Virus record (IMG/VR): IMGVR_UViG_3300017716_001697
Coordinates: 192,001-256,000 of that record
Source: a virus
Taxonomy: Duplodnaviria > Caudoviricetes
DNA length: 64,000 nt
Direction: 5' to 3' (one strand)
Under the pieces are notes generated by a model that did no database searches, was not told where the DNA came from, and saw nothing but the letters and a program-made list of their open reading frames with translations. Position numbers and translations under genes: made by a program. Of the stretch, positions 3,184 through 36,940 are shown piece by piece (within the stretch, counting starts at the first letter, position 1; every line of letters begins with the position of its first letter).

Positions 3184-4278
3184 ATGGCTACACTTGATAC
3201 TTCCCGCGTTGAACGTCCCCGTGATGTACGCACACTTTTGACACGCTGCATGAAGGTGGGTCGTCCTGCAATGATCTGGGGTCCTCCCGGCATTGGCAAG
3301 TCTGAACTGATTGCAGAAATTGGTTTGGAAACCGGGCGCCCTGTTATCGACATGCGTTTGCTGTTGTTGGAACCAACTGACATTAAGGGCATCCCATACT
3401 TCGACGTTGACACAAAGACAATGAAGTGGGCTCAACCTGCAGATTTGCCAACAGATACGCATCTGGCTGACGCAATCCTGTTCCTGGACGAAATTAACGC
3501 TGCCGCTCCTAGCGTGCAGGCTGCTGCGTATCAGTTGATTCTGAATCGCCGAGTTGGTGAATATCACCTGCCTAAGGGTGTTAGCATGGTGTGTGCAGGT
3601 AACCGTGACAGCGACAAGGGTGTTACATATCGTATGCCAAGCCCGCTGGCAAATCGTTTGGTGCACATCGAAATGACTGCTAACTTCGAAGACTGGCAGA
3701 AATGGGCGATCGGTGCAAAGATTCACGCAGACGTGGTTGGCTTCTTGTCGCACCACAAGCAAAAGCTGTTTAACTTCGACAGCAAGAGCCCAGACAAGGC
3801 ATTTGCTACACCGCGTAGCTGGGTGTTCGTTTCGCAACTGATTAGCGACGACATGCCAGAATCGATGAATACATCGCTGGTCGCTGGTACAGTTGGTGAT
3901 GGTCTGGCTACTGAGTTTGCATCGCACCGCAAGGTTGCATCTAAGATGCCTAAGTCGGAAGACGTGCTGTTGGGCAAGGAAAAGACGCTCAATGTCAAGG
4001 ACCTGAGTGCTATGTACTCGCTGACGATCTCTATGTGCTACACACTCCAAGAGTGGGTTGCAAAGGCTAAAGCCAAGGAAGATGGCTTCGACGTTAAGGC
4101 GTGGCACGAATGTGTCGACCGGTTCTTTGAATTCATGATGGACAACTTCCAGACTGAAATGATTGTGCTGGGTGCTAAGACTGCGCTGCGTGACTATCAG
4201 CTGCCAATCAACCATCGTGAACTGAAGAAGTTTAAGGCCTTCCACGACAAGTTCGGTAAGTACATCCTGGAAGATTAA
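3184..4278 (+). CDS. MoxR-like AAA+ ATPase
   Basis: Walker A GPPGIGKS, Walker B ILFLDEIN, AGNR sensor, PLANRL; RBS GGAGA. Confidence 0.93.
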   Translation: MATLDTSRVERPRDVRTLLTRCMKVGRPAMIWGPPGIGKSELIAEIGLETGRPVIDMRLLLLEPTDIKGIPYFDVDTKTMKWAQPADLPTDTHLADAILFLDEINAAAPSVQAAAYQLILNRRVGEYHLPKGVSMVCAGNRDSDKGVTYRMPSPLANRLVHIEMTANFEDWQKWAIGAKIHADVVGFLSHHKQKLFNFDSKSPDKAFATPRSWVFVSQLISDDMPESMNTSLVAGTVGDGLATEFASHRKVASKMPKSEDVLLGKEKTLNVKDLSAMYSLTISMCYTLQEWVAKAKAKEDGFDVKAWHECVDRFFEFMMDNFQTEMIVLGAKTALRDYQLPINHRELKKFKAFHDKFGKYILED

Positions 4279-19579: not shown

Positions 19580-19603
19580 TTTGATAAATAAATAATATAA
19601 CAG

Positions 19604-19632
19604 TTGACAGCATTGTCAAACACTGTTACAAT
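19604..19632 (+). promoter_or_regulatory. sigma70-type early promoter of the tRNA-Arg/rtcB unit
   Basis: TTGACA-N17-TACAAT. Confidence 0.75.
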
Positions 19633-19658
19633 ACATACATCGCAACAAGGAGTCTATT

Positions 19659-19745: not shown

Positions 19746-19820
19746 CTGGCGTTAGTACAATGGATAGTACAGGGGATTTCTACTCCCTAGATAGGGGTTC
19801 GATTCCTCTACGCCGGACCA
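19746..19820 (+). tRNA. trnR: tRNA-Arg(UCU)
   Basis: Full cloverleaf: acceptor CTGGCGT/ACGCCGG, anticodon loop TT-TCT-AC, T-loop TTCGATT, encoded CCA. Confidence 0.95.
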
Positions 19821-20746: not shown

Positions 20747-21940
20747 ATGGAAATCGAAAATGTAAAAATGTGGGTAGGTGATATGGAAGTAGAGCAAGCA
20801 GCTCTATCCCAAATCCTAAACATTTCCCAACTACCTATCCTTGCTGGACACATGGCTATCATGCCAGACGTACACATGGGTAAAGGTGCCACTGTGGGTT
20901 CTGTTATCCCTACACGTTCTGCAATTATTCCTGCGGCTGTGGGTGTGGATATCGGCTGTGGTATGATTGCAGCAATGACCAACCTTACTGCCGATGATCT
21001 TCCTGACTCATTGTTTTCGTTGCGTAATGCAATTGAAAAGGTAGTACCTGTAGGATTCAACGAACACGCAAAGGGCATCCCTTCTGTATCGGGACCTTAC
21101 GCAGATATCCTGCGCAAGAATTTGCACAAGACAATGGATCAATGGGATCACTTGGCAATGAAGCAGCACCTTGGTCGTGCTGACGAAAAGCGCATTGCTC
21201 GCCAAATCGGTACGCTAGGTGGTGGTAACCACTTTATCGAAATCTGTCTCGATACATCTAACCGTGTGTGGATTATGTTACACAGTGGTTCACGCGGTAT
21301 CGGCAATCAAATCGGCACTGTTGCAATCGAAATGGCTAAAGAACAGGCTGCTAAACGTGCATGGGGTCTCCCTGATGCTGATCTTGCATGGCTGGACGAA
21401 GGCACAACCGAATTCGATGCATACATTGAGGCAATGCATTGGGCACAGGACTATGCAAAATTCAACCGCGATACAATGCTGAATTTGGTTATTTCTGCAA
21501 TGAAGGTAAAGTTTCCTACAATGAAGATTGTTGGCGAAGTTGTAAACTGCCACCATAATTTTACAAGCGTGGAAGAGCACTTCAATGAAAAGATCTGGGT
21601 GACACGTAAGGGTGCAGTTTCTGCGCAGTATGGGCAAATGGGTATTATTCCCGGCTCAATGGGTGCAAAGTCATTCATTGTTCGCGGTAAAGGTAATCCT
21701 GATTCCTACTGCTCGTGTTCGCATGGTGCTGGTCGTAAGATGAGCCGCAACCAAGCTAAGAAGTTGTTCACATCACTTGATCTAGAACAACAAACAGCCG
21801 GTGTTGAGTGCCGTAAGGATGCAGACGTAGTTGATGAAATTCCGGGTGCATATAAGGATATTGATCAGGTAATGGCAGCGCAGGCTGATTTGGTTGATAT
21901 TGTACACACGTTGAAGCAAGTTCTTTGTATTAAGGGGTAA
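20747..21940 (+). CDS. rtcB: RtcB RNA ligase (joins 3'-P or 2',3'-cyclic-P to 5'-OH)
   Basis: PDVHMGKG, VGVDIGCG, GTLGGGNHFIE, HSGSRG, HHNF, RKGA, PGSMG, SHGAGR, YKDI motifs. Confidence 0.97.
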   Translation: MEIENVKMWVGDMEVEQAALSQILNISQLPILAGHMAIMPDVHMGKGATVGSVIPTRSAIIPAAVGVDIGCGMIAAMTNLTADDLPDSLFSLRNAIEKVVPVGFNEHAKGIPSVSGPYADILRKNLHKTMDQWDHLAMKQHLGRADEKRIARQIGTLGGGNHFIEICLDTSNRVWIMLHSGSRGIGNQIGTVAIEMAKEQAAKRAWGLPDADLAWLDEGTTEFDAYIEAMHWAQDYAKFNRDTMLNLVISAMKVKFPTMKIVGEVVNCHHNFTSVEEHFNEKIWVTRKGAVSAQYGQMGIIPGSMGAKSFIVRGKGNPDSYCSCSHGAGRKMSRNQAKKLFTSLDLEQQTAGVECRKDADVVDEIPGAYKDIDQVMAAQADLVDIVHTLKQVLCIKG

Positions 21941-23317: not shown

Positions 23318-23395
23318 GCGATGGTAGCTTAGATGGCCTAAAGCCCTCGACTCATAATCGAGATATCGTGGGTTCGACTCCCACCCGTCGCACCA
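23318..23395 (+). tRNA. tRNA with CAU anticodon (elongator Met or Ile2)
   Basis: Acceptor GCGATGG/CCGTCGC, anticodon arm CTCGA-CTCATAA-TCGAG, T-arm GTGGG-TTCGACT-CCCAC, ACCA end. Confidence 0.95.
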
Positions 23396-26308: not shown

Positions 26309-26358
26309 TAATGCATAGCAGCTGATTACAGTAGCTTGTAGAGATCATTAATAAATTA

Positions 26359-26648
26359 GCGGGTATGGAGAAATTGGTAAACTCACCAGACTTAGAGAAA
26401 TAAAATTTGAGTGCCCGGTCGGAAACGATCGGAGTAGAACCTGTCAAATTCGGCGAACACTTTAACATGTCAACGCCGAGCGAAGCCCGAAAGGGAACGT
26501 GTAGAGACTTGACGGCAGGTACCTAACGCAGAAATGCTACGGTAAAGACAAAGTCCAGACTATCAAACCGAGAGGGTAGCGAAAGCTATAGTAGTAAGAA
26601 AATCTGGCGCCGCAAGGCTTGACGGTTCAAGTCCGTCTACCCGCACCA
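26359..26648 (+). tRNA. trnL: tRNA-Leu(UAA) interrupted by a group I intron
   Basis: Exons 26359..26393 and 26599..26648 join into GCGGGTA/TACCCGC acceptor, CCAGA-CTTAAAA-TCTGG anticodon arm, long variable arm and ACCA. Confidence 0.93.
26394..26598 (+). mobile_element. Group I intron (IC3-like, 205 nt, no ORF)
   Basis: P1 ACTT/GAGT with U-G at the splice site; P AAATTCGGCGAA, Q AACGCCGAGCGAAG, R GTGTAGAGACT, S AAGACAAAGTCC; terminal G. Confidence 0.92.
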
Positions 26649-35860: not shown

Positions 35861-35889
35861 TTTACAAGCTGTATAAATAGCATTATAAT
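35861..35889 (+). promoter_or_regulatory. Composite promoter: sigma70 with an embedded T4-late box
   Basis: TTTACA-N17-TATAAT with TATAAATA at 35872..35879. Confidence 0.65.
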
Positions 35890-35894
35890 TAGAT

Positions 35895-36068
35895 ATGAAC
35901 AAAAGAGGACGGCGAGAAGCATTGATGGAAAGGCGGCGAGGCCCTAAGCCACTAAAGACTCGCGAACAATGGATAGCAGAAATGCAAGAACAGTGGAATC
36001 AGATAAAGGAATATAAAGAAATAAATCCCGAAAGTGTAAGGATTGCTAAAGAATTAGGTTTGAAGTAA
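35895..36068 (+). CDS. 57-aa basic protein directly upstream of the ribozyme (absent from ORF track)
   Basis: MNKRGRREALMERRRGPKP...; stop 2 nt before hammerhead stem I. Confidence 0.55.
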   Translation: MNKRGRREALMERRRGPKPLKTREQWIAEMQEQWNQIKEYKEINPESVRIAKELGLK

Positions 36069-36070
36069 AT

Positions 36071-36228
36071 CACAACTGATGAGCCTGTAAGGGCGAAATC
36101 ACAGAACTTGTAGAACTGTTTGGGAACCTTTTAACTCGGTGTATACAACATCCGAAAGGATGCCCGTAAGGAAACGAAGGGAACTGCCTGAGACTAGGAT
36201 ATAGGACTTCTCGTTCTGTGATATTGTG
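36071..36228 (+). ncRNA. Type I hammerhead ribozyme with ~105-nt insertion in loop III
   Basis: Stem I CACAA/TTGTG, core CTGATGA, stem II GCC-TGTAAG-GGC, GAAA, 10-bp stem III ATCACAGAAC/GTTCTGTGAT, cleavage triplet AUA (cut 36223/36224). Confidence 0.88.
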
Positions 36229-36510
36229 TTAGAAAGGTTGATCCACTGGCTTTCACTGCCCACTGGCTTGCTGCTTAAAATTGGCCGCCATGGATTTGTA
36301 CTAAGGATCAAAGGTAACTTGCGCTCATCCAAACGCAGAAGGAGATATATCCAAAGGATCTTTAACCAACTCTAATAGACGATGATAGTAGGGCAAAATA
36401 TTAACGCCCGAGCCACTTACTCGTACCGATAGCCGGGGTGTAATGCATATAGATTATAAATGTAGTATAGATAGAGTTAGGAAGGTAGTAATACTGAAAC
36501 TAACAGGAGT
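36229..36510 (+). ncRNA. Structured RNA downstream of the hammerhead
   Basis: No plausible ORF; stems GGTT-GATCC/GGATC-AACC, AACTCTA/TAGAGTT, GGGC/GCCC, CGAG/CTCG; repeat CCACTGGCTT x2. Confidence 0.55.
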
Positions 36511-36538
36511 AAGCCCATGTAACAGTGGGCTTTCTTTT
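36511..36538 (+). terminator. Intrinsic terminator
   Basis: AAGCCCA/TGGGCTT stem plus T tract. Confidence 0.8.
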
Positions 36539-36553
36539 GACTTAAAATAGCAG

Positions 36554-36582
36554 TTGACAAGATTGACAAACTACGTTACAAT
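36554..36582 (+). promoter_or_regulatory. sigma70-type early promoter
   Basis: TTGACA-N17-TACAAT. Confidence 0.75.
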
Positions 36583-36604
36583 ATAAGCATACAAAGGAGA
36601 TAGT

Positions 36605-36940
36605 ATGAACAATTCTGTAAAAGGCTGGTTGGGTGGTGTGGGTTTTATCGCAACAGGTATTGCCGTTGTGTTCGGTATGGCGTATGGCAGTTTCGCACTG
36701 TATTCATACTTCAATCCAAAGTACACCGCCGTGAATAACCAAACATTCAAGGAATCGCAACAGTACAACGACGGTATGGTTCGTGATCTGGAAAACCTGC
36801 AGATGGAATACATCAATGGCGACCAGGGTAAGAAAGACGCTATACGTGCCATTGTGTTGCATCGCTTCTCCGTCTACCCAATGGACAAGATGCCTATCAA
36901 TCTCCGCAATTTTTACAACTCTCTTAAGTCTGGAAACTAA
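36605..36940 (+). CDS. Single-pass membrane protein
   Basis: RBS AAGGAG, TM helix, ESQQYNDG. Confidence 0.8.
   Translation: MNNSVKGWLGGVGFIATGIAVVFGMAYGSFALYSYFNPKYTAVNNQTFKESQQYNDGMVRDLENLQMEYINGDQGKKDAIRAIVLHRFSVYPMDKMPINLRNFYNSLKSGN

Follow-up and report, generated by a model that had tools for sequence, protein, structure and literature searches.

A type I hammerhead with a long stem III arm forms the 5′ module of a conserved RNA unit in large freshwater phages

We identify and characterize a type I hammerhead ribozyme in a phage genome segment, and find that it stands at the 5′ side of a conserved RNA gene. The segment analysed here, referred to as the window, is a stretch of 64,000 nt that covers positions 192001-256000 of a virus record 364,576 bp in length and bounded by direct terminal repeats, and its best-matching sequencing run is a freshwater metagenome. 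The layout of the RNA gene is shared within a clade of large freshwater phages and consists of a variable upstream region, a hammerhead with a long stem III, a non-coding RNA (ncRNA) of ~300-420 nt and an intrinsic terminator. The motif occurs non-randomly, its helices covary, the unit is conserved and retains its synteny, and the 3′ RNA lacks coding signal. In our assessment the element at 36071-36228 is probably a functional type I hammerhead of the phage lineage, serving as the 5′ module of this RNA gene and providing constitutive 5′-end maturation of the ncRNA. An earlier note on this DNA had described the hammerhead; its membership in a conserved hammerhead and ncRNA gene was absent from that account.

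Hammerhead motif and covariation of its helices

The hammerhead is made up of the following elements, read from the sequence unless stated otherwise.

36071-36228, plus strand: type I hammerhead ribozyme, identified by sequence, fold, descriptor scan, covariation and covariance model
36071-36075, plus strand: 5′ strand of stem I, CACAA
36076-36082, plus strand: core CUGAUGA
36083-36094, plus strand: stem II, GCC(U)/(G)GGC closing a GUAA tetraloop
36095-36098, plus strand: GAAA
36098-36107 with 36213-36222, plus strand: stem III, 10 bp including A15.1-U16.1
36223, plus strand: A17 (H17), with the predicted cut at 36223/36224
36224-36228, plus strand: 3′ strand of stem I, UUGUG

The TAA stop codon of a 57-aa ORF (36066-36068) is followed by two bases, AU, and then by the hammerhead, which accordingly lies 2 nt after a stop codon, as the earlier note had placed it. 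The order of elements is CACAA-CUGAUGA-GCCUGUAAGGGC-GAAA-UCACAGAAC, 105 nt, GUUCUGUGA-UA-UUGUG. All invariant core nucleotides are present (C3-U4-G5-A6-N7-G8-A9 in CUGAUGA, 36076-82, and G12-A13-A14 in GAA, 36095-97), A36098 pairs with U36222 as A15.1-U16.1, a pair that is A-U in 49/49 aligned phage hammerheads, and A36223 is H17, the non-G nucleotide directly before the scissile bond. Stem I consists of 5 bp and stem II of 3 bp, with an additional U-G pair closing the GUAA tetraloop; the cleavage triplet is AUA. The complete hammerhead that had been claimed, with its core, stems I (5 bp), II (3 bp) and III (10 bp), AUA triplet and predicted cut between 36223 and 36224, can thus be read directly in the sequence. 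With loops capping stems II and III, both transcript ends exit via stem I, which defines a type I topology. Loop II is a GNRA tetraloop, GUAA in the window and GGAA in 6/8 other long forms, and the flank 3′ of stem I is conserved among the long forms as UUAG, UUGG or UUGA; in these forms neither pairing nor covariation defines a contact of loop II with stem I, the tertiary interaction that permits fast cleavage at physiological Mg2+; stem I is only 5 bp long. When the 158 nt are folded in isolation, the minimum free energy (MFE) structure is exactly the hammerhead architecture (-42.7 kcal/mol, z = -2.1). With flanking sequence included the MFE fold is no longer a hammerhead, so cleavage would rely on co-transcriptional folding.

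Relatives of the element were collected by pattern searches. Patterns derived from the insert and the downstream sequence retrieved homologues of the whole region in four loci (L014, L020, L021 and L022). A scan with CACAA-CUGAUGAG-N10-14-GAAAC returned 73 loci, in which 62 complete type I hammerheads were resolved by script; most of these are compact, and four (L047, L059, L072 and L093) have a stem III content of 64-94 nt. L047, L048 and L070 are identical over the stretch shown and were counted once. Eight further long-arm homologues (L014, L020, L021, L022, L047, L059, L072 and L093) therefore make nine sequences with the window. The exact 23-nt core plus stem II was also found in five IMG/VR contigs, each with a compact type I hammerhead that has stem I AUCAAA/UUUGAU, a stem III content of 16-56 nt and a GUC triplet. 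The compact hammerheads of L001-L005 sit just 5′ of a ribosome-binding site, which is followed by a gene. Two relatives at about 90% identity occur in sequencing-run contigs (probably DNA), and none of the listed runs containing the stretch is recorded as RNA. The window unit and two homologous units gave no blastn match against 50,697 phage records, and a pattern scan gave none in prokaryote genomes. Syntenic relatives reached through the downstream 111-aa protein (L007-L013) are without a hammerhead, and the two inspected for it, L007 and L013, are without an intergenic gap.

Seven loci (L001, L003, L005, L058, L073, L074 and L078) carry two or three compact type I hammerheads each, 0.3-1.8 kb apart and flanking single genes, the same arrangement as that of the prophage hammerheads in PMC3088659. 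One contig with compact hammerheads, L001, also holds a Betaproteobacteria-1 RNA (RF02932, 100 bits) at 3371-3489, which may hint at the host of the compact-hammerhead phages.

In a descriptor scan of the 364,576-bp genome the window hammerhead is the sole strict match. Strict criteria returned no match in 20 first-order Markov shuffles of the genome, and loose criteria returned 1.35 per shuffle; scans for the other topologies gave no credible type II or type III hammerhead elsewhere in the 364-kb genome. Rfam does not call the window hammerhead at its gathering score, and in E-value mode it yields a partial HH9 match alone (18.5 bits, E 0.23). Because the Rfam library likewise misses the compact canonical hammerheads of L001-L005, this failure reflects the limits of the models together with the long insert.

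Covariation was assessed on two alignments. Among the first five long-arm sequences, in a MAFFT-based alignment, 97.5% of cells pair and 15/35 pairs are compensatory, values reached by 0/500 shuffles, and slid controls are ~40-50% paired. When long and compact forms are combined (49 distinct phage hammerheads), pairing reaches 99.4% of cells and 24/35 pairs are compensatory; this model-fitted alignment leans toward the covariance model by construction, and the independent MAFFT-based count points the same way. By helix, the compensatory pairs of the 49-sequence alignment are distributed as 4/5 in stem I, 3/4 in stem II and 12/16 in stem III with its continuation P3a. Stem III of the window differs from that of L014 at 6/10 pairs with pairing fully kept. 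At the first stem II position of L014 (1235-1247, minus strand), U10.1 lies opposite U11.1. A covariance model built from the long-arm sequences detects the long form exactly once in the 364-kb genome and once in each of three related contigs, finds none in the complete 354-kb relative G001, and aligns compact type I hammerheads end to end with the arm treated as a deletion. Taken on comparative sequence evidence, the window hammerhead is a genuine, non-random type I hammerhead with covarying helices.

The stem III arm

The 105 nt that separate the two strands of stem III are organized as follows.

36108-36212, plus strand: stem III extension (105 nt), from RNAalifold and pair counts
G36110 and AGAA 36112-36115 with CUUC(U) 36208-36212, plus strand: helix P3a, from covariation
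36118-36125, plus strand: invariant loop GUUUGGGA, from the homologue alignment
36127-29 with 36196-98, plus strand: helix P3b, from RNAalifold and pair counts
36135-41 with 36185-92, plus strand: helix P3c, from RNAalifold and pair counts
36142-36184, plus strand: lineage-specific branched tip with a CAUCC-GAAA-GGAUG hairpin and a CCC/GGG helix, from homologue comparison

P3a varies among homologues with its pairing retained (AGAAG/CUUCU, AGGAU/AUUCU, AGUGU/ACACU), and an internal loop GUUYGGGA is found in most long-arm homologues, with L014 and L093 deviating. The distal arm is highly variable in both size and sequence, measuring 33 nt in L022, 42 nt in L047 and L059, 66-74 nt in others and 105 nt in the window. 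In L022 the arm ends after P3a in an 18-nt loop, in L047 and L059 a simple hairpin takes the place of the P3b/P3c module, and the branched tip, which adds a three-way junction in the window, is elsewhere missing or replaced. A contig from another study retains the large tip (92% identity over 36114-36261); in P3c its 3′ strand has three substitutions, each of which preserves pairing. Among the inner helices that the earlier note had drawn, CATCC-GAAA-GGATG (36149-36162) is plausible as a lineage-specific element, and TTGTA/TACAA and GAAG/CTTC conflict with the covarying P3a; in the 92%-identical relative the TACAA arm is altered and neither of the two latter pairings is kept. The 105-nt insert is a conserved coaxial extension of stem III and not a foreign insertion; its internal loops are conserved and its tip evolves freely.

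Several long-range contacts of the arm were considered. A pseudoknot between UUUUAAC of the arm (36129-35) and GUUAGAA of the tail (36228-34) is complementary in five homologues, and was rejected since its duplex energies are no better than those of shuffled tails (p 0.11-0.94) and four homologues are without the arm module. A possible pairing between core U7-G10.1 and the GUUYG segment in the arm was discarded as consisting mostly of G-U pairs, and inspection by eye revealed no covariation for a long-range pairing between the arm and the AUAUCCAAA block.

The downstream RNA and its genomic context

Upstream and downstream of the hammerhead, the window contains the following features.

35861-35889, plus strand: promoter-like region TTTACA-17-TATAAT, sigma-70-type, 11/12 matches, from sequence
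35872-35879, plus strand: TATAAATA embedded in the promoter-like region, from sequence
35895-36068, plus strand: 57-aa orphan ORF ending 2 nt before the hammerhead, from the ORF list and codon usage
36224-36540, plus strand: conserved ncRNA of ~317 nt, the predicted 3′ cleavage product, starting 5′-OH-UUGUGUUAGA and aligning with eight homologous units
36311-36357, plus strand: most conserved block of the ncRNA, composed of AAGGUAACU, a hairpin and AAGGAGAUAUAUCCAAAG, from the homologue alignment
36320-36337, plus strand: hairpin with an AUCCA loop inside this block, with a covarying stem
36511-36540, plus strand: intrinsic terminator closing the unit, hairpin and U-tract
36554-36582, plus strand: sigma-70-type promoter TTGACA-17-TACAAT of the next gene (36605-36940), outside the RNA, from sequence

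Every resolved long-arm hammerhead is followed by a UUGUGUU (AG or G) tail and then by conserved RNA with a terminator, whereas other sequence lies 3′ of the compact hammerheads with a GUC triplet. In full, the order 3′ of the hammerhead is the UUGUGUU tail with its AG or G, variable sequence, AAGGUAACU, the AUCCA hairpin, AAGGRGAUAUAUYCAAA, further hairpins and the terminator. As read from the alignments, the stem of the block hairpin takes the forms UGCG/CGCA, GCGA/UCGC, GCGGA/UCUGC and UGUGGG/CCUACA. The near-invariant AAGGRGAUAUAUYCAAA (36340-36357 and homologues) combines a Shine-Dalgarno-like AAGGAG with the 8-nt palindrome GAUAUAUC, and no start codon after it is conserved among the homologues. 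The terminator hairpin and U-tract occupy the same place in all homologues, with a lineage-specific hairpin sequence. No homologue of the ncRNA matches an Rfam family, no tRNA or tmRNA was found inside the unit, and close relatives differ by single-base indels within the ncRNA. A minus-strand ORF at 36099-36332 was dismissed because a single-base indel interrupts it in a closely related sequence. Between the 57-aa ORF and the next plus-strand ORF, which begins at 36605, lie 536 nt that contain no convincing gene.

Past the terminator, the long-arm loci continue with a sigma-70-type promoter for a non-conserved gene, and a TTGAC motif at this place is kept in most homologues. A 41-nt similarity (80% identity) links 36543-36583 to 19593-19633, that is, the post-terminator promoter to the region 5′ of tRNA-Arg and RtcB, and one contig from another run matches the post-terminator promoter piece only. 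A repeat or mobile-element origin of the unit was set aside, given that the unit is single-copy and only the post-terminator promoter resembles another promoter (19593-19633).

The region upstream of the hammerhead is variable. The combined early/late promoter assigned to it previously holds for the sigma-70-type site (11/12 matches); the late component is unsupported, as the window shows no enrichment of TATAAATA (3 found vs 4.6 expected) and the label had been conjecture only. A (G/T)ATAAATA motif lies 5-17 nt 5′ of stem I in L020, L021, L022 and L093. By codon usage the 57-aa ORF looks coding: its own frame scores +0.12, the other two -1.70 and -0.66, and its score exceeds that of 99.3% of out-of-frame windows. 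A search of 5.8 billion proteins returned no homologue, and none of the homologous units contains this ORF. ORFs of 84 or 93 aa end 7-8 nt before the hammerhead in L093 and L022, and an aberrant tRNA-like RNA lies 5′ of the hammerhead in L020, L021, L047 and L059. This tRNA-like element, located ~100 nt 5′ of the hammerhead on the minus strand of L020 and seen also in L021, L047, L059 and L070, combines the T-arm UCCGG-UUCAAGA-CCGGA with a CUCUUG/CAAGAG pairing that resembles an acceptor stem, and is not called by ARAGORN; a second T-arm-like sequence, GGGGUUUCGAGUCCCC, is found further upstream.

In every locus long enough, 5-9 kb separate tRNA-Leu(UAA) from the unit, which is downstream on the same strand, and tRNA-Met and/or tRNA-Arg(UCU) precede this array where the locus reaches them. 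With such conserved synteny, the unit resembles a vertically inherited gene of one phage clade and not a mobile element. At 26339-26574 of the window, Rfam calls a group I intron above its gathering threshold; at the corresponding position, related contigs carry tRNA-Leu(UAA) either intact or interrupted by an intron.

Alternative readings, proposed role and known systems

The features of the unit can be read in several ways. A score under the Rfam gathering threshold, a short stem I and an MFE fold that is not a hammerhead once flanks are added would all be expected of a chance or decayed motif without activity; we judge this very unlikely in view of the absence of strict matches from the 20 shuffled genomes, the extensive covariation of all helices and a core that shows no variation across the eight complete long-arm sequences or in the retained part of the 5′-truncated L014. 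The suggestion that the insert could be a regulatory or aptamer domain is not supported. An allosteric ribozyme, whose stem III domain would act as an aptamer or protein-binding switch for cleavage, is unlikely: the 10 bp of stem III and the 5-6 bp of P3a are stably paired between the conserved loops and the core, and with ~16 stable and covarying bp in between a ligand bound at those loops would be without an obvious route to the core. The distal half of the arm is moreover dispensable and hypervariable (33 nt and a plain loop in L022, 42 nt in L047/L059, 105 nt in the window), riboswitch and aptamer families in Rfam give no match, and in compact relatives sharing this core and stem II the loop is just 4 nt. 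These points stand against the sequence conservation of unpaired arm nucleotides while the helices around them covary (GUUYGGGA in most long forms), the presence of UUUUAACUC with GAGACUARGA in 5/9 long forms, and the alternative folds that compete once flanks are included. The best explanation of the arm is a structural or factor-binding element, not an allosteric switch.

Two further readings concern the fate of the cleavage products. Hammerhead cleavage leaves a 2′,3′-cyclic phosphate and a 5′-OH, and such ends are the substrates of RtcB. The window does encode RtcB, as had been noted (PF01139, 427 bits, 20810-21937), between tRNA-Arg(UCU) at 19746-19820 and tRNA-Met at 23318-23395, 14 kb upstream of the hammerhead in the same RNA-gene-rich region. 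Position and chemically suitable ends thus speak for a cut-and-rejoin scheme, in which the phage RtcB would religate or circularise the products or join them to other RNAs. The proposed partnership finds no counterpart in the relatives, however: RtcB (PF01139) was not found in the unit-bearing contigs G006, G007 and G008, all of them incomplete records for which a host RtcB is possible, nor in the complete relative G001, and in G008 it was not found in the tRNA-Arg to tRNA-Leu interval, the site of the window's RtcB. Each genome contains a single hammerhead, and one cut cannot supply either product with the two ends that RtcB needs for circularisation: the 3′ product ends in a 3′-OH at the terminator, and the 5′ product starts with a 5′-triphosphate. 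The repair of tRNAs is a simpler account of an RtcB gene beside tRNA genes, and we regard cut-and-rejoin as highly improbable. Least credible of all is that cleavage would generate a nearly leaderless mRNA, with the 3′ product UU-GUG encoding a small peptide (49 codons in the window). A GUG two bases past the cut opens 18-49 codons in five homologues (by eye), with starts M-L-E or M-L-D, and a 2026 study (PMC13725137) describes ribozyme-dependent initiation of translation in RNA viruses. Against this, the peptides are alike in three residues only, which overlap stem I and the conserved tail, close relatives are separated by single-base indels, a ribosome-binding site is lacking, and the GUG frame of the window is not coding-like, with a codon score of -0.25 against an in-frame mean of +0.42 (sd 0.18).

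We therefore return to 5′-end maturation of the ncRNA as the favoured role of the hammerhead. Cleavage itself, its constitutive mode and a role for the 5′-OH end are what we infer from the organization of the unit. A type I cut falls 5 nt from the 3′ edge of the ribozyme, so nearly the whole ribozyme would be kept on the upstream fragment. In the window this fragment would be the mRNA of the 57-aa ORF, which would gain a structured 3′ end with a 2′,3′-cyclic phosphate, and the downstream RNA would be released almost clean, with the invariant 5′-OH end UUGUGUUAG. The ribozyme would then operate as a constitutive 5′-end maturation and insulation device, so that the ncRNA would begin identically in any upstream context, a role that fits the combination of variable upstream sequence and invariant downstream RNA. 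Resistance to 5′-end-dependent decay is a plausible purpose of the 5′-OH. A more ambitious proposal, which we put forward as speculative and on balance rather doubtful, is that the long-arm hammerhead and the RNA it releases constitute a new family of ribozyme-matured ncRNAs of giant freshwater phages, in which the GUUYGGGA arm and the 5′-OH would be recognised by a phage or host factor and the RNA with AAGGRGAUAUAUYCAAA would act in trans, for instance on ribosomes or as an anti-defence decoy.

Hammerheads located between genes of phages and prophages have been reported, with a proposed role in transcript processing (Perreault et al. 2011, PMC3088659), and the reading of the window hammerhead as a 5′-maturation element extends that proposal. 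The element shares with phage and prophage type I hammerheads (RF00163, clan CL00010; PMC3088659) its core, three-helix junction, open stem I and intergenic position. It differs from the compact phage forms in several respects: the window family has a multi-helix stem III arm of 33-105 nt in place of a 4-nt loop, its triplet is AUA or GUA instead of GUC, and its downstream partner is a conserved ncRNA instead of a protein gene; the window form also falls under Rfam thresholds. Like the mouse discontinuous hammerhead (cited in PMC3088659), it accommodates a long sequence in one helix with the core intact, but the mouse ribozyme is eukaryotic and its insert is not reported in PMC3088659 as a conserved structured domain. 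A parallel among phages is provided by theta (minimal HDV-like) ribozymes, which occur beside phage tRNA genes (Kienbeck et al. 2024, PMC10879173); they too are small self-cleaving phage ribozymes that set an ncRNA end in or near tRNA clusters. Theta ribozymes belong to another class: HDV-like ribozymes cut at their own 5′ edge, maturing the 3′ end of an upstream RNA. The window type I hammerhead, in contrast, has its cut near its 3′ edge and would mature the 5′ end of a downstream RNA. In engineered insulators such as RiboJ, a hammerhead-type ribozyme strips variable 5′ context and yields a uniform RNA start with a 5′-OH. Insulators of the RiboJ type are synthetic; the window hammerhead would be their equivalent in nature, equipped with a conserved accessory arm.

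Our literature search returned no paper describing the arrangement of a long-arm hammerhead with a conserved ncRNA. New relative to the hammerhead class are the long conserved stem III arm, the AUA/GUA triplet and the obligate tie to an undescribed conserved ncRNA. These findings add a hammerhead subtype and an ncRNA beyond Rfam 15, and they remove an attractive but unsupported link to RtcB. A hammerhead subtype with a fixed ncRNA partner and a context-specific accessory arm makes the "transcript processing" proposal for phage hammerheads concretely testable.
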